Assembly: GCF_056712565.1 (NCBI RefSeq)
Contig: NZ_CM160072.1
Length of the DNA stretch: 64,000 nucleotides
Strand: one strand, 5' to 3'
Shown here: in pieces, positions 9,095-46,133 of the stretch
How positions within the stretch are numbered: position 1 is the first letter of the stretch
How the letters are laid out: the number at the start of each line of letters is the position of its first letter
The notes under the pieces: model-generated
Told to the model about the DNA's origin: nothing
Database searches by the model: none
Seen by the model: the letters and a program-made list of their open reading frames with translations, nothing else
Made by a program: the position numbers and the translations under genes

Positions 9095-9171
<77 letters not shown>

Positions 9172-9228
9172 TTTAGTCCCGGCGCTTGAGCTGCGGTGGT
9201 AGTAATACCGCGTAACAAGATTTGTAGT

Positions 9229-9305
9229 GGTGGCTATAGCTCAGTTGGTAGAGCCCTGGATTGTGATTCCAGTTGTCGTGGGTTCGAATCCCATTAGCCA
9301 CCCCA
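9229..9305 (+). tRNA. hisR: tRNA-His (anticodon GUG)
   Basis: Extra 5' G characteristic of tRNA-His; anticodon loop TTGTGAT; ends CCA. Confidence 0.9.
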
Positions 9306-9325
9306 TTATTAGAAGTTGTGACAAT

Positions 9326-9412
9326 GCGAAGGTGGCGGAATTGGTAGACGCGCTAGCTTCAGGTGTTAGTGTCCTTACGGACGTGGGGGTTCAAGTCCCC
9401 CCCCTCGCACCA
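9326..9412 (+). tRNA. leuT: tRNA-Leu (anticodon CAG)
   Basis: 87 nt with long variable arm; anticodon CAG; ends CCA. Confidence 0.9.
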
Positions 9413-9454
9413 CGACTTTAAAGAATTGAACTAAAAATTCAAAAAGCAGTATTT

Positions 9455-9531
9455 CGGCGAGTAGCGCAGCTTGGTAGCGCAACTGGTTTGGGACCAGTGG
9501 GTCGGAGGTTCGAATCCTCTCTCGCCGACCA
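9455..9531 (+). tRNA. proM: tRNA-Pro (anticodon UGG)
   Basis: 77 nt; anticodon loop TTTGGGA; ends CCA. Confidence 0.9.
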
Positions 9532-13150: not shown

Positions 13151-13357
13151 GTAGATGCTCATTCCATCTCTTATGTTCGCCTTAGTGCCTCATAAACTCC
13201 GGAATGACGCAGAGCCGTTTACGGTGCTTATCGTCCACTGACAGATGTCGCTTATGCCTCATCAGACACCATGGACACAACGTTGAGTGAAGCACCCACT
13301 TGTTGTCATACAGACCTGTTTTAACGCCTGCTCCGTAATAAGAGCAGGCGTTTTTTT
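13151..13357 (+). ncRNA. glmZ: small RNA GlmZ
   Basis: Sequence recognised as GlmZ (begins GTAGATGCTCATTCC), ending in intrinsic terminator aacgcctgctc-cgtaataa-gagcaggcgtttttttt; aslA-hemY intergenic location; TGgCATAAT extended -10 just upstream. Confidence 0.85.
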
Positions 13358-40107: not shown

Positions 40108-41130
40108 ATGTTTCAGCAGCAAAAAGACTGGGAAACAAGAGAAAACGCGTTTGCTGCTTTTACCATGGGACCGCTGACTGATTTCTGGCGTCAGCGTGAT
40201 GAAGCAGAGTTTACTGGTGTGGATGACATTCCGGTTCGCTTTGTCCGTTTTCGCGCACAGCACCATGACCGGGTGGTAGTCATCTGTCCGGGGCGTATTG
40301 AGAGCTACGTAAAATATGCGGAACTGGCCTACGACCTGTTCCATTTGGGGTTTGATGTTTTAATCATCGACCATCGCGGGCAGGGACGTTCCGGTCGCCT
40401 GTTAGGCGATCCACATCTCGGGCATGTTAATCGCTTTAATGATTATGTTGATGATCTGGCGGCATTCTGGCAACAGGAGGTTCAGCCCGGTCCGTGGCGT
40501 AAACGCTATATACTGGCACATTCGATGGGCGGTGCGATCTCCACATTATTTCTGCAACGCCATCCAGGTGTATGTGACGCCATTGCGCTAACTGCGCCAA
40601 TGTTTGGGATTGTGATTCGTATGCCGTCATTTATGGCACGGCAGATCCTCAATTGGGCCGAAGCGCATCCACGTTTCCGTGATGGCTATGCGATAGGCAC
40701 CGGGCGCTGGCGCGCGTTGCCGTTTGCTATCAACGTACTGACCCACAGCAGACAGCGATATCGACGTAACTTACGTTTCTATGCTGATGACCCAACGATT
40801 CGCGTCGGTGGGCCGACCTACCATTGGGTACGCGAAAGTATTCTGGCTGGCGAACAGGTGTTAGCCGGTGCGGGTGATGACGCCACGCCAACGCTTCTCT
40901 TACAAGCTGAAGAGGAACGCGTGGTGGATAACCGCATGCACGACCGTTTTTGTGAACTACGCACCGCTGCGGGCCATCCTGTCGAAGGAGGACGGCCGTT
41001 GGTAATTAAAGGTGCGTACCATGAGATCCTTTTTGAAAAGGACGCAATGCGCTCAGTCGCGCTCCACGCTATCGTTGATTTTTTCAACAGGCATAACTCA
41101 CCCAGCGGAAACCGCTCTACAGAGGTTTAA
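40108..41130 (+). CDS. pldB: lysophospholipase L2
   Basis: 340 aa; alpha/beta hydrolase with GHSMGG. Confidence 0.85.
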   Translation: MFQQQKDWETRENAFAAFTMGPLTDFWRQRDEAEFTGVDDIPVRFVRFRAQHHDRVVVICPGRIESYVKYAELAYDLFHLGFDVLIIDHRGQGRSGRLLGDPHLGHVNRFNDYVDDLAAFWQQEVQPGPWRKRYILAHSMGGAISTLFLQRHPGVCDAIALTAPMFGIVIRMPSFMARQILNWAEAHPRFRDGYAIGTGRWRALPFAINVLTHSRQRYRRNLRFYADDPTIRVGGPTYHWVRESILAGEQVLAGAGDDATPTLLLQAEEERVVDNRMHDRFCELRTAAGHPVEGGRPLVIKGAYHEILFEKDAMRSVALHAIVDFFNRHNSPSGNRSTEV

Positions 41131-41137
41131 ATTTCTT

Positions 41138-41938
41138 ATGTACCAGGTTGTTGCGTCTGATTTAGATGGCACGTTACTTTCTCCCGACCATACGTTATCC
41201 CCTTACGCCAAAGAAACTCTGAAGCTGCTCACCGCGCGCGGCATCAACTTTGTGTTTGCGACCGGTCGTCACCACGTTGATGTGGGGCAAATTCGCGATA
41301 ATCTGGAGATTAAGTCTTACATGATTACCTCCAATGGCGCGCGCGTTCACGACCTCGATGGCAACCTGATTTTTGCTCATAACCTGGATCGCGACATTGC
41401 CAGTGACCTGTTTGGCGTAGTCAACGACAATCCGGACATCATTACTAACGTTTATCGCGACGACGAATGGTTTATGAATCGCCATCGCCCGGAAGAGATG
41501 CGCTTTTTTAAAGAAGCGGTGTTCAAATATGCGCTGTATGAGCCGGGATTGCTGGAGCCGGAAGGCGTCAGCAAAGTGTTCTTCACCTGCGATTCCCATG
41601 AAAAACTTCTGCCACTGGAGCAAGCGATTAACGCTCGCTGGGGCGATCGCGTCAATGTCAGTTTCTCTACCTTAACCTGCCTGGAAGTCATGGCTGGCGG
41701 CGTTTCAAAAGGCCATGCGCTGGAAGCGGTGGCTAAGAAACTGGGCTACAGTCTGAAGGATTGTATTGCGTTTGGTGATGGGATGAACGACGCCGAAATG
41801 CTGTCGATGGCGGGGAAAGGCTGCATTATGGGCAGTGCGCACCAGCGTCTGAAAGATCTGCATCCAGAGCTGGAAGTGATTGGTACTAACGCCGAAGACG
41901 CAGTGCCGCATTATCTGCGTAAGCTCTATTTATCGTAA
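41138..41938 (+). CDS. yigL: HAD-family sugar phosphatase YigL
   Basis: Start at MYQVVASDLDGTLL (266 aa); Cof-type HAD motifs. Confidence 0.85.
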   Translation: MYQVVASDLDGTLLSPDHTLSPYAKETLKLLTARGINFVFATGRHHVDVGQIRDNLEIKSYMITSNGARVHDLDGNLIFAHNLDRDIASDLFGVVNDNPDIITNVYRDDEWFMNRHRPEEMRFFKEAVFKYALYEPGLLEPEGVSKVFFTCDSHEKLLPLEQAINARWGDRVNVSFSTLTCLEVMAGGVSKGHALEAVAKKLGYSLKDCIAFGDGMNDAEMLSMAGKGCIMGSAHQRLKDLHPELEVIGTNAEDAVPHYLRKLYLS

Positions 41939-42013
41939 TCGTTCTTTATTTGGTCAGTTGTCAACCTGATACTTCGCTACAATGGCTACTCGTTAATCAA
42001 AGAGTTTTCCATT

Positions 42014-42913
42014 GTGGCGCTACTTATCATCACCACGATTCTGTGGGCCTTCTCCTTTAGCTTTTATGGCGAGTACCTTGCGGGGCACGTCGATAGCTAT
42101 TTTGCGGTGCTGGTGCGCGTTGGCCTGGCGGCACTCGTTTTTCTGCCGTTTCTGCGTACCCGTGGCAATAGCCTGAAAACGGTCGGCCTGTATATGCTGG
42201 TGGGCGCGATGCAGCTCGGTGTGATGTATATGCTGAGTTTCCGCGCCTATCTCTACCTGACGGTCTCCGAACTGTTGCTGTTCACCGTACTGACGCCGCT
42301 CTACATCACGCTGATTTATGACATCATGAGTAAGCGCCGTCTGCGCTGGGGCTATGCCTTTAGCGCCTTGCTGGCGGTGATTGGTGCCGGGATTATTCGC
42401 TATGATCAGGTCACCGACCATTTCTGGACTGGCTTATTGCTGGTGCAACTCTCCAATATCACTTTTGCCATCGGCATGGTGGGTTACAAACGTCTGATGG
42501 AAACTCGCCCGATGCCGCAGCATAACGCCTTTGCGTGGTTCTATCTTGGCGCGTTCCTGGTGGCAGTGATTGCATGGTTCTTGCTGGGAAATGCGCAGAA
42601 AATGCCGCAAACCACGTTGCAATGGGGCATTCTGGTGTTTCTTGGTGTGGTGGCTTCCGGGATTGGCTACTTTATGTGGAACTACGGCGCGACGCAGGTG
42701 GACGCCGGAACGCTGGGCATTATGAATAATATGCACGTTCCGGCAGGGCTGCTGGTAAACCTGGCTATCTGGCACCAACAGCCGCACTGGCCAACGTTTA
42801 TTACAGGCGCGCTGGTGATCCTGGCCTCACTGTGGGTGCATCGTAAGTGGGTCGCTCCGCGCTCTTCACAAACGGCAGATGATCGCAGGCGTGATTGCGC
42901 GCTGAACGAATAA
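42014..42913 (+). CDS. yigM: EamA-family transporter YigM (biotin transporter BioP)
   Basis: 299 aa; GTG start; 3' end overlaps the convergent metR by about 113 bp. Confidence 0.75.
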
Positions 42914-43754
42914 ACGCTTCCGTAATCGGCTGACGCTGCTCGCCATCGCGCACGGCGGCGTACAGTCGGCTCCACAAGCCTTCGCCCAGGGTTTTGGTGA
43001 CCACCAGACCCTGGCGTTCAAAACTCTCCACCACCCAATGCGGTAGTGCGGCAATACCCATCCGTGCGGCAACCATCTGAATCAACAATAAGGTGTTATC
43101 GACGCTTTTCAGTGACGGGCTGACGCCTGCTGGCTGAAGAAAATGCCGCCAGACATCCAGTCGGCTACGCTGCACCGGATAAATCAACAGCGTTTCGCTG
43201 GCGAGGTCTTCCGGCGTGATTCGCGTTTTCGCCGCCAGTGGATGGTCAGGTGCTAACACCAGACGCACTTCATAGTCGAACATCGGCGAATAATGCAGGC
43301 CACTGCGCGGCAGAATATCGGAGGTCATCACCAGATCCAGCTCACCCTGCTGCAACGCGGGCTGCGGGTCAAACGTCACGCCCGATTTAAAATCCATCTC
43401 CACCTGCGGCCAGTTCTTATGGAAATTTTCTAACGCGGGCGTCAGCCACTGAATACAGCTATGGCACTCAATGGCAATGCGCAGGCGCGTCTGCTGCGGT
43501 TCATTGCAGGCTTGCAGTGCCTGGCTGATTTGCGGCAGCACCTGATTCGCCAGTTGCAACAGGATTTCTCCCTGCGGTGTAAACCGAAGCGGCTGGCTTT
43601 TACGCACAAATAGCCGGAAGCCAAGGCGTTGTTCCAGATCGCTAAACTGGTGAGACAGGGCGGATTGCGTTTGATGCAACGTCGCCGCAGCGGCTGCGAG
43701 TGAGCCGCAGTTCCGCAACGCTTGTAGCGTTTTCAGGTGTTTTACTTCGATCAT
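42801..43754 (-). CDS. metR: LysR-family regulator MetR
   Basis: 317 aa; N-terminal HTH; divergent from metE. Confidence 0.9.
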
Positions 43755-43871
43755 GAAAGTCCTTCACTTCGGCATGAATAATTTGCGCTTGAGGAATATA
43801 CAGTAACCGCCAATTATGGATGTGTAAACATCTGGACGGCTAAATACTAAAAATTCCATAAGGGGCATATA
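43755..43871. promoter_or_regulatory. metR/metE divergent control region with putative MetJ boxes
   Basis: Tandem 8-bp units aaacatct-ggacggct near 43825..43840 resemble AGACGTCT met boxes. Confidence 0.45.
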
Positions 43872-46133
43872 ATGACAATTCTTAATCACACCCTCGGTTT
43901 CCCTCGCGTTGGCCTGCGTCGCGAGCTGAAAAAAGCGCAAGAGAGTTATTGGGCGGGGAACTCCACGCGTGAAGAACTGCTGGCGGTAGGGCGTGAATTG
44001 CGTGCTCGTCACTGGGATCAACAAAAGCAAGCGGGTATCGACCTGCTGCCGGTGGGCGATTTTGCCTGGTACGATCATGTACTGACCACCAGTCTGCTGC
44101 TGGGTAATGTTCCGCAACGTCATCAGAACAACGATGGTTCGGTAGATATCGACACCCTGTTCCGTATTGGTCGTGGACGTGCACCGACTGGCGAACCTGC
44201 GGCGGCAGCGGAAATGACCAAATGGTTTAACACCAACTATCACTACATGGTGCCGGAGTTCGTTAAAGGCCAACAGTTCAAACTGACCTGGACGCAGCTG
44301 CTGGAGGAAGTGGACGAGGCGCTGGCGCTGGGCCACAAGGTGAAACCTGTGCTGCTGGGGCCGATTACCTACCTGTGGCTGGGTAAAGTGAAAGGTGAAC
44401 AGTTTGATCGCCTGAGCCTGCTGAACGACATTCTGCCGGTTTATCAGCAAGTGCTGGCAGAACTGGCGAAACGCGGCATCGAGTGGGTACAGATTGATGA
44501 ACCCGCGTTGGTACTGGAACTGCCGCAGGCGTGGCTGAACGCATACAAACCCGCTTACGACGCGCTCCAGGGACAGGTGAAACTGCTGCTGACCACCTAT
44601 TTTGAAGGCGTAACGCCAAATCTCGACACGATTACTGCGCTGCCTGTTCAGGGTCTGCATGTCGATCTTGTACATGGTAAAGATGACGTTGCTGAACTGC
44701 ACAAGCGTCTGCCTTCTGACTGGCTGCTGTCTGCGGGTCTTATCAATGGTCGTAACGTCTGGCGCGCCGATCTTACCGAGAAATATGCGCAAATTAAGGA
44801 CATTGTCGGCAAACGCGATTTGTGGGTGGCATCTTCCTGCTCGTTGCTGCACAGCCCCATCGACCTGAGCGTGGAAACGCGTCTTGATGCAGAAGTGAAA
44901 AGCTGGTTTGCCTTCGCCCTGCAAAAATGTCATGAACTGGCATTGCTGCGCGATGCGCTAAACAGTGGTGATACGGCAGCTCTGGCAGAGTGGAGCGCTC
45001 CGATTCAGGCGCGTCGTCACTCTACTCGTGTACATAATCCGGCAGTAGAAAAGCGTCTGGCGGCGATCACCGCCCAGGACAGTCAGCGTGCGAATGTCTA
45101 TGAAGTGCGTGCTGAAGCCCAGCGTGCGCGTTTTAAACTGCCCGCATGGCCGACCACCACGATTGGTTCCTTCCCGCAAACCACGGAGATTCGTACCCTG
45201 CGTCTGGATTTTAAAAAGGGTAATCTCGACGCCAATAACTACCGCACGGGCATTGCGGAACATATCAAGCAGGCCATTGTTGAGCAGGAACGTTTGGGAC
45301 TGGATGTGCTGGTACATGGCGAGGCCGAGCGTAATGACATGGTGGAATACTTTGGCGAGCACCTCGACGGGTTTGTCTTTACGCAAAACGGTTGGGTACA
45401 GAGCTACGGTTCCCGCTGCGTGAAGCCACCGATTGTTATTGGTGACGTTAGTCGTCCGGCGCCGATTACCGTGGAGTGGGCAAAATATGCGCAATCCCTG
45501 ACTGATAAACCGGTGAAAGGGATGTTGACCGGCCCGGTGACTATTCTCTGCTGGTCGTTCCCGCGTGAAGATGTCAGCCGTGAAACCATCGCCAAACAAA
45601 TTGCGCTGGCGCTGCGTGATGAAGTCGCGGACCTGGAAGCCGCTGGAATTGGCATCATTCAGATTGACGAACCGGCATTGCGCGAAGGTTTACCACTGCG
45701 TCGCAGCGACTGGGATGCCTATCTCCAGTGGGGCGTGGAGGCTTTCCGTATCAACGCCGCCGTGGCGAAAGATGACACACAAATCCACACTCACATGTGT
45801 TACTGCGAGTTCAACGACATCATGGATTCGATTGCGGCGCTGGACGCAGACGTCATCACCATCGAAACCTCGCGTTCCGACATGGAGTTGCTGGAGTCGT
45901 TTGAAGAGTTTGATTATCCAAATGAAATCGGTCCTGGCGTCTATGACATTCACTCGCCAAACGTACCGAGCGTGGAATGGATTGAAGCCTTGCTGAAGAA
46001 AGCGGCAAAACGCATTCCGGCAGAGCGTCTGTGGGTCAACCCGGACTGTGGCCTGAAAACGCGCGGCTGGCCAGAAACCCGCGCGGCACTGGCGAACATG
46101 GTGCAGGCGGCGCAGAATTTGCGTCGGGGATGA
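43872..46133 (+). CDS. metE: cobalamin-independent methionine synthase
   Basis: 753 aa; [20 protein letters not shown]-terminus. Confidence 0.9.

Follow-up and report, generated by a model that had tools for sequence, protein, structure and literature searches.

The window considered in the current analysis is a stretch of 64,000 nucleotides of contig NZ_CM160072.1 (RefSeq assembly GCF_056712565.1). It encodes two genes on opposite strands, bioP (also referred to as yigM) and metR, which run into each other and share the DNA of their 3' ends (Table 1). YigM is described as a high-affinity biotin transporter (PMC5120140, PMC4049904), and Ringlstetter and Finkenwirth et al. are credited with identifying yigM as the biotin transporter. 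The Pfam family EamA has been assigned to its product with an E-value of 1.9e-22 (EamA/DMT family), and the second domain ends at residue 275. MetR comprises an HTH_1 domain (residues 5-63) and a LysR_substrate domain (residues 86-288). The structure of its DNA-binding domain is available (PDB 5fo5, residues 1-92), and the regulatory domain of the N. meningitidis MetR (4ab5) aligns to residues 87-296. The Pfam assignments, the MetR structure in the PDB and the published transport of biotin by YigM identify both of the overlapping ORFs as real, functional genes.

Table 1. Genes, overlap, constraint zones and transcription-related features of the bioP/metR locus (positions in the window)
Feature	Position	Strand	Description and basis
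bioP (yigM) CDS	42014..42913	+	299 aa; ORF list, Pfam EamA, RefSeq 'bioP: biotin transporter'
metR CDS	42801..43754	-	317 aa; LysR-type activator of metE/metH; ORF list, Pfam, RefSeq
Tail-to-tail overlap	42801..42913	both	113 bp; YigM codons 263-299 and stop, MetR codons 281-317 and stop
yigM stop TAA	42911..42913	+	antisense to MetR Phe281-Ile282; from sequence
metR stop TAA	42801..42803	-	antisense to YigM Ile263-Thr264; from sequence
Zone A	42801..42847		yigM frame constrained (transmembrane helix 10, I263-K278); MetR tail T303-L317 free
Zone B	42848..42860		13-nt doubly constrained core TGGGTCGCTCCGC; YigM W279-V-A-P-R283, MetR A299-E-R-P302
Zone C	42861..42913		metR frame constrained (F281-S298, end of regulatory domain); YigM tail S284-E299 free
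Published Rho termination region (approximate)	42600..42700	+	MG1655 4011704, about window position 42642, mapped via MG1655 coordinates
C-rich, G-poor stretch on yigM read-through RNA	42950..43099	+	just past the yigM stop
Mirror C-rich stretch on metR read-through RNA	42600-42749		past the metR stop

The two reading frames meet in such a way that the first codon positions lie opposite each other, while the second position of one frame lies opposite the third position of the other and the third opposite the second. The overlap cannot be an artefact of start-codon choice, since it is set by unambiguous stop codons alone. The yigM frame contains 9 stops over the 318 codons of metR, and the metR frame 16 stops over the 300 codons of yigM. 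As stops are sparse in both antisense frames, an open run of 37 codons is unremarkable in one genome. It is the conservation of the 113-bp geometry across species that goes beyond chance, not its occurrence in a single genome.

The window region is 100% identical to that of E. coli ATCC 11775, the type strain, and about 97% identical to K-12 here. The bioP-metR region is present at an identity of at least 95% in 5,422 of 5,426 complete E. coli genomes. The 113-bp bioP/metR overlap has been annotated by RefSeq in ATCC 11775 and in the K-12 strains BW25113 and MG1655; in MG1655 (NC_000913.3) bioP is encoded at 4011076-4011975 and metR at 4011863-4012816, with the overlap at 4011863-4011975. A previous sequence-only reading of this DNA had described a 113-bp overlap of yigM and metR on opposite strands and had supposed the same arrangement in K-12. 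The ORF ends at 42913 (+) and 42801 (-), with which RefSeq agrees, and the annotation of the two K-12 genomes bear out both statements.

The overlap is therefore already known, being both annotated and published for E. coli K-12. Côté et al. 2016, mBio (PMC5120140) state that yigM 'overlaps substantially' with metR and that deletion of metR disrupts yigM. There the Keio metR deletion is found to phenocopy the yigM deletion. Two phenotypes, the synthetic lethality of metR with bioA and the susceptibility of metR mutant cells to an inhibitor of BioA, are put down to the accompanying damage to yigM. The K-12 pair of Côté et al. 2016 and its 113-bp overlap are identical to those of the window, and the feature itself is no different. 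The zone anatomy and the stop-codon lock described below have not been found in the available parts of that account (PMC5120140).

A hospital isolate, E. coli Z135-6 (NZ_CP159632.1 2012589-2014408), has both bioP and metR annotated as pseudogenes 'missing C-terminus'. The 3' halves of the two genes, including the whole overlap (the equivalent of about 42240-43340 of the window), are replaced in this isolate by about 1.2 kb of DNA with a 211-aa hypothetical ORF. It is a natural double knock-out of bioP/metR.

The conservation of the arrangement has been analysed with one genome per species, which comprised 80 Enterobacteriaceae loci with YigM identities of 81-99%, and both stops were located in each. 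The overlap measures 113 bp in most of them (70 species); the others have 116 bp (7 species), 98 bp (2) or 68 bp (1). YigM has 299 aa in 79 of the 80 species; MetR mostly has 317 aa (71 species), less often 318 aa (7) or 312 aa (2). The orthologues agree in the position of both stops, which excludes an error or a 3' extension confined to one lineage. Hundreds of database clusters show these same two lengths, 299 and 317 aa. An earlier true stop of yigM, which would have removed the overlap, was looked for and is absent: in 79 of the 80 species, as in Yersinia and Dickeya, the gene closes at codon 300. The opinion of the sequence-only reading that the arrangement is conserved and not novel holds for the Enterobacteriaceae species and for the overlaps of Yersinia and Dickeya, and the overlap is in print (PMC5120140).

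More distant relatives have been reached by protein searches and contig look-ups. Yersinia has a YigM of 299 aa, a MetR of 317 aa and an overlap of 113 bp, which are the lengths of E. coli. Dickeya zeae and a 57%-identical relative have a YigM of 299 aa, a MetR of 312 aa and an overlap of 98 bp. The two genes of Serratia marcescens are convergent and lie 36 bp apart, encoding a YigM of 286 aa and a MetR of 314 aa. Erwinia toletana has a DUF1456 gene between yigM and metR, with a YigM of 287 aa and a MetR of 312 aa. YigM homologues at about 51% identity do not adjoin metR. Serratia and Yersinia belong to one family, and the geometry of Yersinia is exactly that of E. coli. The most parsimonious reading is therefore an ancestral overlap, which Serratia and Erwinia would have lost secondarily.

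According to Pallejà et al. 2008 (PMC2478687), only the convergent ones among prokaryotic overlaps of more than 60 bp can be real, and most such long convergent overlaps are kept only among close relatives. The bioP/metR overlap shares with the conserved long convergent overlaps of Rogozin et al. 2002, as far as these are cited in Pallejà et al. 2008 (PMC2478687), a length above 60 bp, a tail-to-tail orientation and well-characterised genes. It also resembles the overlaps of PMC2478687 in being created by 3' extension into the neighbour. Unlike most of those, it spans the Enterobacteriaceae, the Yersiniaceae (Yersinia) and the Pectobacteriaceae (Dickeya).

Per-site entropy by codon position, calculated over the 71 species with the standard geometry, divides the overlap into three zones of constraint (Table 1). 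In the left part, measured over 42801-42860, the yigM third positions, which are the metR second positions, have a mean entropy of 0.82 bits as against 0.21. The pattern flips near 42860, and in Zone C the metR third positions, which are the yigM second positions, have 0.64 bits as against 0.11. The core between them is invariant in all 71 species with the exception of position 42855 (C in 66, T in 5). Its synonymous entropy is 0 in both frames, in comparison with about 1.05 elsewhere (Mann-Whitney p = 0.002-0.003).

Only the 13-nt core shows purifying selection on the yigM and metR frames alike, the p values for the other zones ranging from 0.12 to 0.77. The four-fold sites of yigM codons 263-278 show no extra synonymous constraint with respect to the rest of the gene (p = 0.77). 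Similarly, no significant synonymous constraint is seen in metR codons 281-298 at two-fold (p = 0.17) or four-fold sites (p = 0.12). Synonymous entropy opposite the YigM tail is a little below that of the rest of metR (0.55 in comparison with 0.67, and 0.85 in comparison with 1.04), a difference that is not significant, and weak selection on the YigM tail may be present. Selection on the tails as a whole has been set aside, the synonymous-site tests not being significant.

The ends of the overlap are held by a stop-codon lock. Whichever codons metR uses for Phe-Ile (TTY-ATH), the yigM strand spells T[A/G]A opposite them, which is always a stop. In the MetR alignment F281 never varies, and I282 hardly does. 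At the other end, all 7 species with a MetR of 318 aa and an overlap of 116 bp have FILG, FIVG or FMTG in YigM, not FI[TIM]G or FL[TI]G, and these changes abolish the antisense stop of metR. The length of the overlap is fixed, because each stop is antisense to a conserved dipeptide of the partner.

The third positions of metR codons Ile282 (ATT) and Phe281 (TTT), at 42909 and 42912 of the window, show zero synonymous variation in the 71 species. Such absence of variation is rare in metR, being seen in 7 of 216 comparable codons. Phe281 TTT is also kept in Serratia and Erwinia, and Ile282 ATT is replaced there by ATC in Serratia and by GTG in Erwinia. The invariance of TTT cannot be credited to the yigM stop, because the codon is kept where yigM ends elsewhere. 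Selection on the TAA stop of yigM has been rejected as a reading on the same ground, TTT being kept in both of the non-overlapping genomes. There is a weak hint that the C-terminal Glu299 of YigM may be selected and not entirely neutral; the hint involves two comparison genomes, and natural variants without the tail are known.

A number of observations concern the tails that each protein carries beyond its conserved part. The AlphaFold model of YigM has a mean pLDDT of 85.6, and residues 286-299 fall below 50. The AlphaFold model of MetR (mean pLDDT 43.7, shallow alignment) was uninformative and has been set aside. MetR is homologous to the solved regulatory domain of the N. meningitidis protein only as far as residue 296, and the MetR tails of different families are unalignable. 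YigM of Serratia and Erwinia ends 4-7 residues past the helix, without a tail. Natural short forms of YigM (284-285 aa) have been identified in an isolate of the Enterobacteriaceae and in a cluster from Salmonella Gaminara, and short forms of MetR (312 aa) in Citrobacter gillenii and a Pluralibacter MAG. The YigM helix sequence of Citrobacter gillenii is that of its close relatives, despite the 312-aa MetR.

The strand antisense to metR in Serratia still spells the motif of the YigM tail as a phantom frame. Since this frame persists there, the 'QTADDRRR' of the YigM tail is dictated by the codons for HACDHLPFV of MetR. Judging by these naturally occurring sequences, both tails are dispensable in nature, and from the same comparison we infer that they are neutral.

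These observations make it probable that the bioP/metR overlap, a real and ancient overlap of two unrelated functional genes, persists as a frozen, essentially neutral accident and not as a device. According to this explanation, there is no spacer between the convergent genes and a ribosome would read on to the first stop in the antisense frame of the partner. Each protein would therefore gain a tail of about 15 residues; that of YigM is predicted to be disordered, and both would be dispensable. One frame would be selected at a time, the last transmembrane helix of YigM in the left 47 nt and the end of the MetR regulatory domain in the right 53 nt. The 13-nt junction would be frozen, both frames being of consequence there, and the Phe-Ile of MetR would fix the yigM stop just as the Ile-Thr of YigM would fix the metR stop.

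True dual coding, with both tails functional and the whole 113 bp selected in both frames, is an improbable alternative that is contradicted outside the core. It would account for a core frozen at all three codon positions and for a Glu299 of YigM that is invariant in the 71 species, though a synonymous change in metR would alter it. In the YigM tail, two basic residues (R291 and R293) are also largely kept. These two residues, however, are dictated by the MetR codons for Cys290 and His288 and reappear in the phantom frame of Serratia, and the TTT codon of Phe281 is equally conserved in the two genomes without an overlap. Outside the core the second positions of the tail frames vary, with amino-acid entropies of 1-3 bits. 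The natural truncations and replacements of both tails and the predicted disorder of the YigM tail further argue against functional tails.

The genomes of Serratia and Erwinia reveal how the overlap was undone. In comparison with E. coli, Yersinia and Dickeya, Serratia has a 101-nt insertion inside the 13-nt core, right after TGGGT. On the left flank of the insertion YigM keeps WVAP and then reaches a new stop. On the right flank MetR keeps ARP, and a new unrelated tail precedes it. The core of about 12 nt alone is present on both sides of the insertion. A test for tandem duplication as the route in Serratia was negative, the local alignment of the yigM 3' end with the downstream sequence being at the level of shuffled sequences. 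In Erwinia a whole gene has been inserted, and a strong hairpin follows yigM. In both genomes the overlap was undone by insertion at or beside the small, doubly constrained junction.

The Serratia marcescens spacer (L088 3340-3440) contains a hairpin with the stem GGGCCA and TGGCCC separated by 12 nt. The strong stem of Erwinia toletana (L089 3364-3410), AGCGGAGCGG-GTAA-ACCGCTCCGCT, lies directly 3' of the yigM stop. Terminator-like structures appear in these two genomes once a spacer gives room for them.

A scan of 41800-44000 of the window has revealed no intrinsic terminator above background at the junction, its single site lying far away inside metR in comparison with 2.5 expected. A bidirectional intrinsic terminator with a G+C-rich hairpin and flanking U/A tracts is also absent from the junction, and Rfam has no RNA family at the overlap or close to it. 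Folding of the 150 nt that follow each stop is more stable than that of shuffled sequences (z = -3.2 and -2.9).

A perfect 8-bp inverted repeat, CCGGAACG…CGTTCCGG, is located at 42705-42743 within yigM. Read on the metR strand, it lies about 60-95 nt beyond the metR stop and could cap the metR 3' end. It has been rejected as a functional hairpin, because the three pairs that involve third positions are not maintained in the 71 species. The repeat arises as a by-product of the codons for AGT/VPA.

Adams et al. 2021 eLife (PMC7815308, Supplementary file 2) have listed a Rho-dependent region on the + strand at MG1655 4011704, classified as 'internal, yigM', with a score of 5.07 and p = 1.3e-12. 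The reads upstream and downstream of it number 98 and 21 in untreated cells; with bicyclomycin the counts are 300 and 326. Since the windows of the method span 800 nt and the ends that it marks are processed ones, the position is approximate; at this low mapping resolution the region falls about 270 nt before the yigM stop. These data indicate that Rho holds down transcription of the yigM strand across metR (PMC7815308). The metR strand has no entry in the Rho table of Adams et al. (PMC7815308), and no Term-seq 3' ends are listed at MG1655 40115xx-40120xx.

The RNA past both stops is rich in C (Table 1). The two stretches have GC skews of -0.15 and +0.21, which fall in the 6-8% tails of the distribution in the window, with a C content of 0.33 and a G content of 0.22-0.24. 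Such composition may weakly favour the loading of Rho and is generic for the antisense RNA of coding DNA. Under the explanation of a frozen accident, the junction would have no room for a terminator hairpin, and both transcripts would therefore enter the partner as untranslated, C-rich antisense RNA. The read-through would most likely be ended by Rho, as the published data indicate for the yigM strand; for the metR strand this is suggested by the C-rich composition.

The arrangement can be compared with two further known systems. Like the bidirectional terminators of Ju et al. 2019, as summarised in bioRxiv 10.1101/2022.10.23.513370, the pair is convergent with overlapping 3' ends of transcription units. 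The sites so summarised are intergenic and Rho-independent, with a hairpin in both directions, whereas bioP/metR has no spacer and no hairpin above background, and its yigM-strand termination responds to bicyclomycin.

The second system is the excludon, a form of antisense regulation through overlapping 3' UTRs that was described in Listeria. The bioP/metR pair is similar in being convergent, with transcripts complementary over more than 100 nt. It differs in that the shared stretch is coding sequence of either gene and that Rho appears to limit read-through on at least one strand. An excludon would be marked by a long regulated antisense transcript and by reciprocal expression of the two genes, mediated in cis by their overlapping transcripts.

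A regulatory device of the excludon or convergent-interference type, in which metR transcription collides or pairs with that of bioP and the reverse, seems quite improbable. Biotin synthesis uses SAM-dependent steps. A metR gene derepressed at low methionine would by such means couple methionine/SAM status to the uptake of biotin. The lack of a terminator between the genes, so that each transcript is antisense to the other over at least 113 nt, is in keeping with such a device, as is the persistence of the arrangement in Enterobacteriaceae, Yersinia and Dickeya. Head-on collision of polymerases has also been documented as a mode of termination for convergent E. coli genes (bioRxiv 10.1101/2022.10.23.513370).

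An expression link between bioP and metR is however without support, and neither gene is present in the tables of RNase III dsRNA captured with p19 (PMC7373196). Rho appears already to curtail yigM-strand transcription, and Serratia and Erwinia have separated the genes and yet kept both. The predicted fall of bioP upon a rise of metR has no obvious physiological logic, and protein-coding constraint together with the stop-codon lock fully explain the conservation. A specific form of the device, in which a cis-antisense link joins the methionine regulon to biotin import with Rho setting the gain, and in which the 13-nt core and the ...GAATAA end of yigM serve as parts and not as by-products of two protein constraints, is very improbable. 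Mutual transcriptional interference as such, which the sequence-only reading had raised, is possible, and nothing found in the current analysis supports or refutes it. The persistence of the overlap across three families could reflect a hidden benefit.

An artefact of annotation or sequencing, by which an earlier true yigM stop or a frameshift falsely extends one of the genes, is refuted: most annotated prokaryotic overlaps above 60 bp are indeed mispredictions, including 124 of 178 long convergent ones (PMC2478687), but the bioP/metR overlap is set by unambiguous stop codons alone, has the same ends in two K-12 genomes as well as in the complete genome that is 100% identical, lies in a region kept at 95% identity or above in nearly all complete E. 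coli genomes (5,422/5,426), and shows the 299/317 aa pair again in 70 of 80 species, in Yersinia and in hundreds of clusters.

The sole demonstrated consequence of the overlap is genetic and not regulatory, in that removal of either gene damages the other. A clean deletion of metR takes away the end of the last transmembrane helix of YigM, just as a clean deletion of yigM costs MetR its conserved C-terminal end. Because each deletion cuts the end of the partner, the phenotypes of Keio mutants may belong to the neighbour. Genome engineers and annotators should treat the bioP/metR pair as one unit. The pair also provides a teaching case of a long antiparallel overlap that is deeply conserved without a function of its own, the genes alternating in constraint. 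The feature is evolutionarily tidy but ordinary, and it would pose a new biological question only if cis-regulatory coupling were demonstrated.

Other features of the window have been noted in the course of the analysis. The divergent control region between metR and metE (43755-43871) is 117 bp long here and 236 bp in K-12. An extra block of about 120 nt (…CCACCCCGGTCACTTACTTCAGTAAGCTCCCGGGGATGAAT…) is found in the metE leader of K-12 and Salmonella arizonae and is absent here and in Yersinia. Of 5,426 complete E. coli genomes, 2,100 have the block at the same site; it belongs to a dispersed repeat, of which a genome contains a median of 8 diverged copies. It probably corresponds to the ERIC/IRU element (ERIC1R and ERIC2 primer sequences).

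Four clustered tRNA genes and the sRNA GlmZ (SraJ) have been assigned by Rfam at 9095-9528 and 13151-13357 of the window; they are ordinary and unrelated to the overlap. Upstream of bioP, the ORF list extends yigL (41012-41938) upstream to a GTG at 41012, where it overlaps pldB (40108-41130). RefSeq places the start of yigL 8 nt past the pldB stop (locus positions 739 and 731), and the same-strand overlap of yigL and pldB is therefore an artefact of ORF calling.
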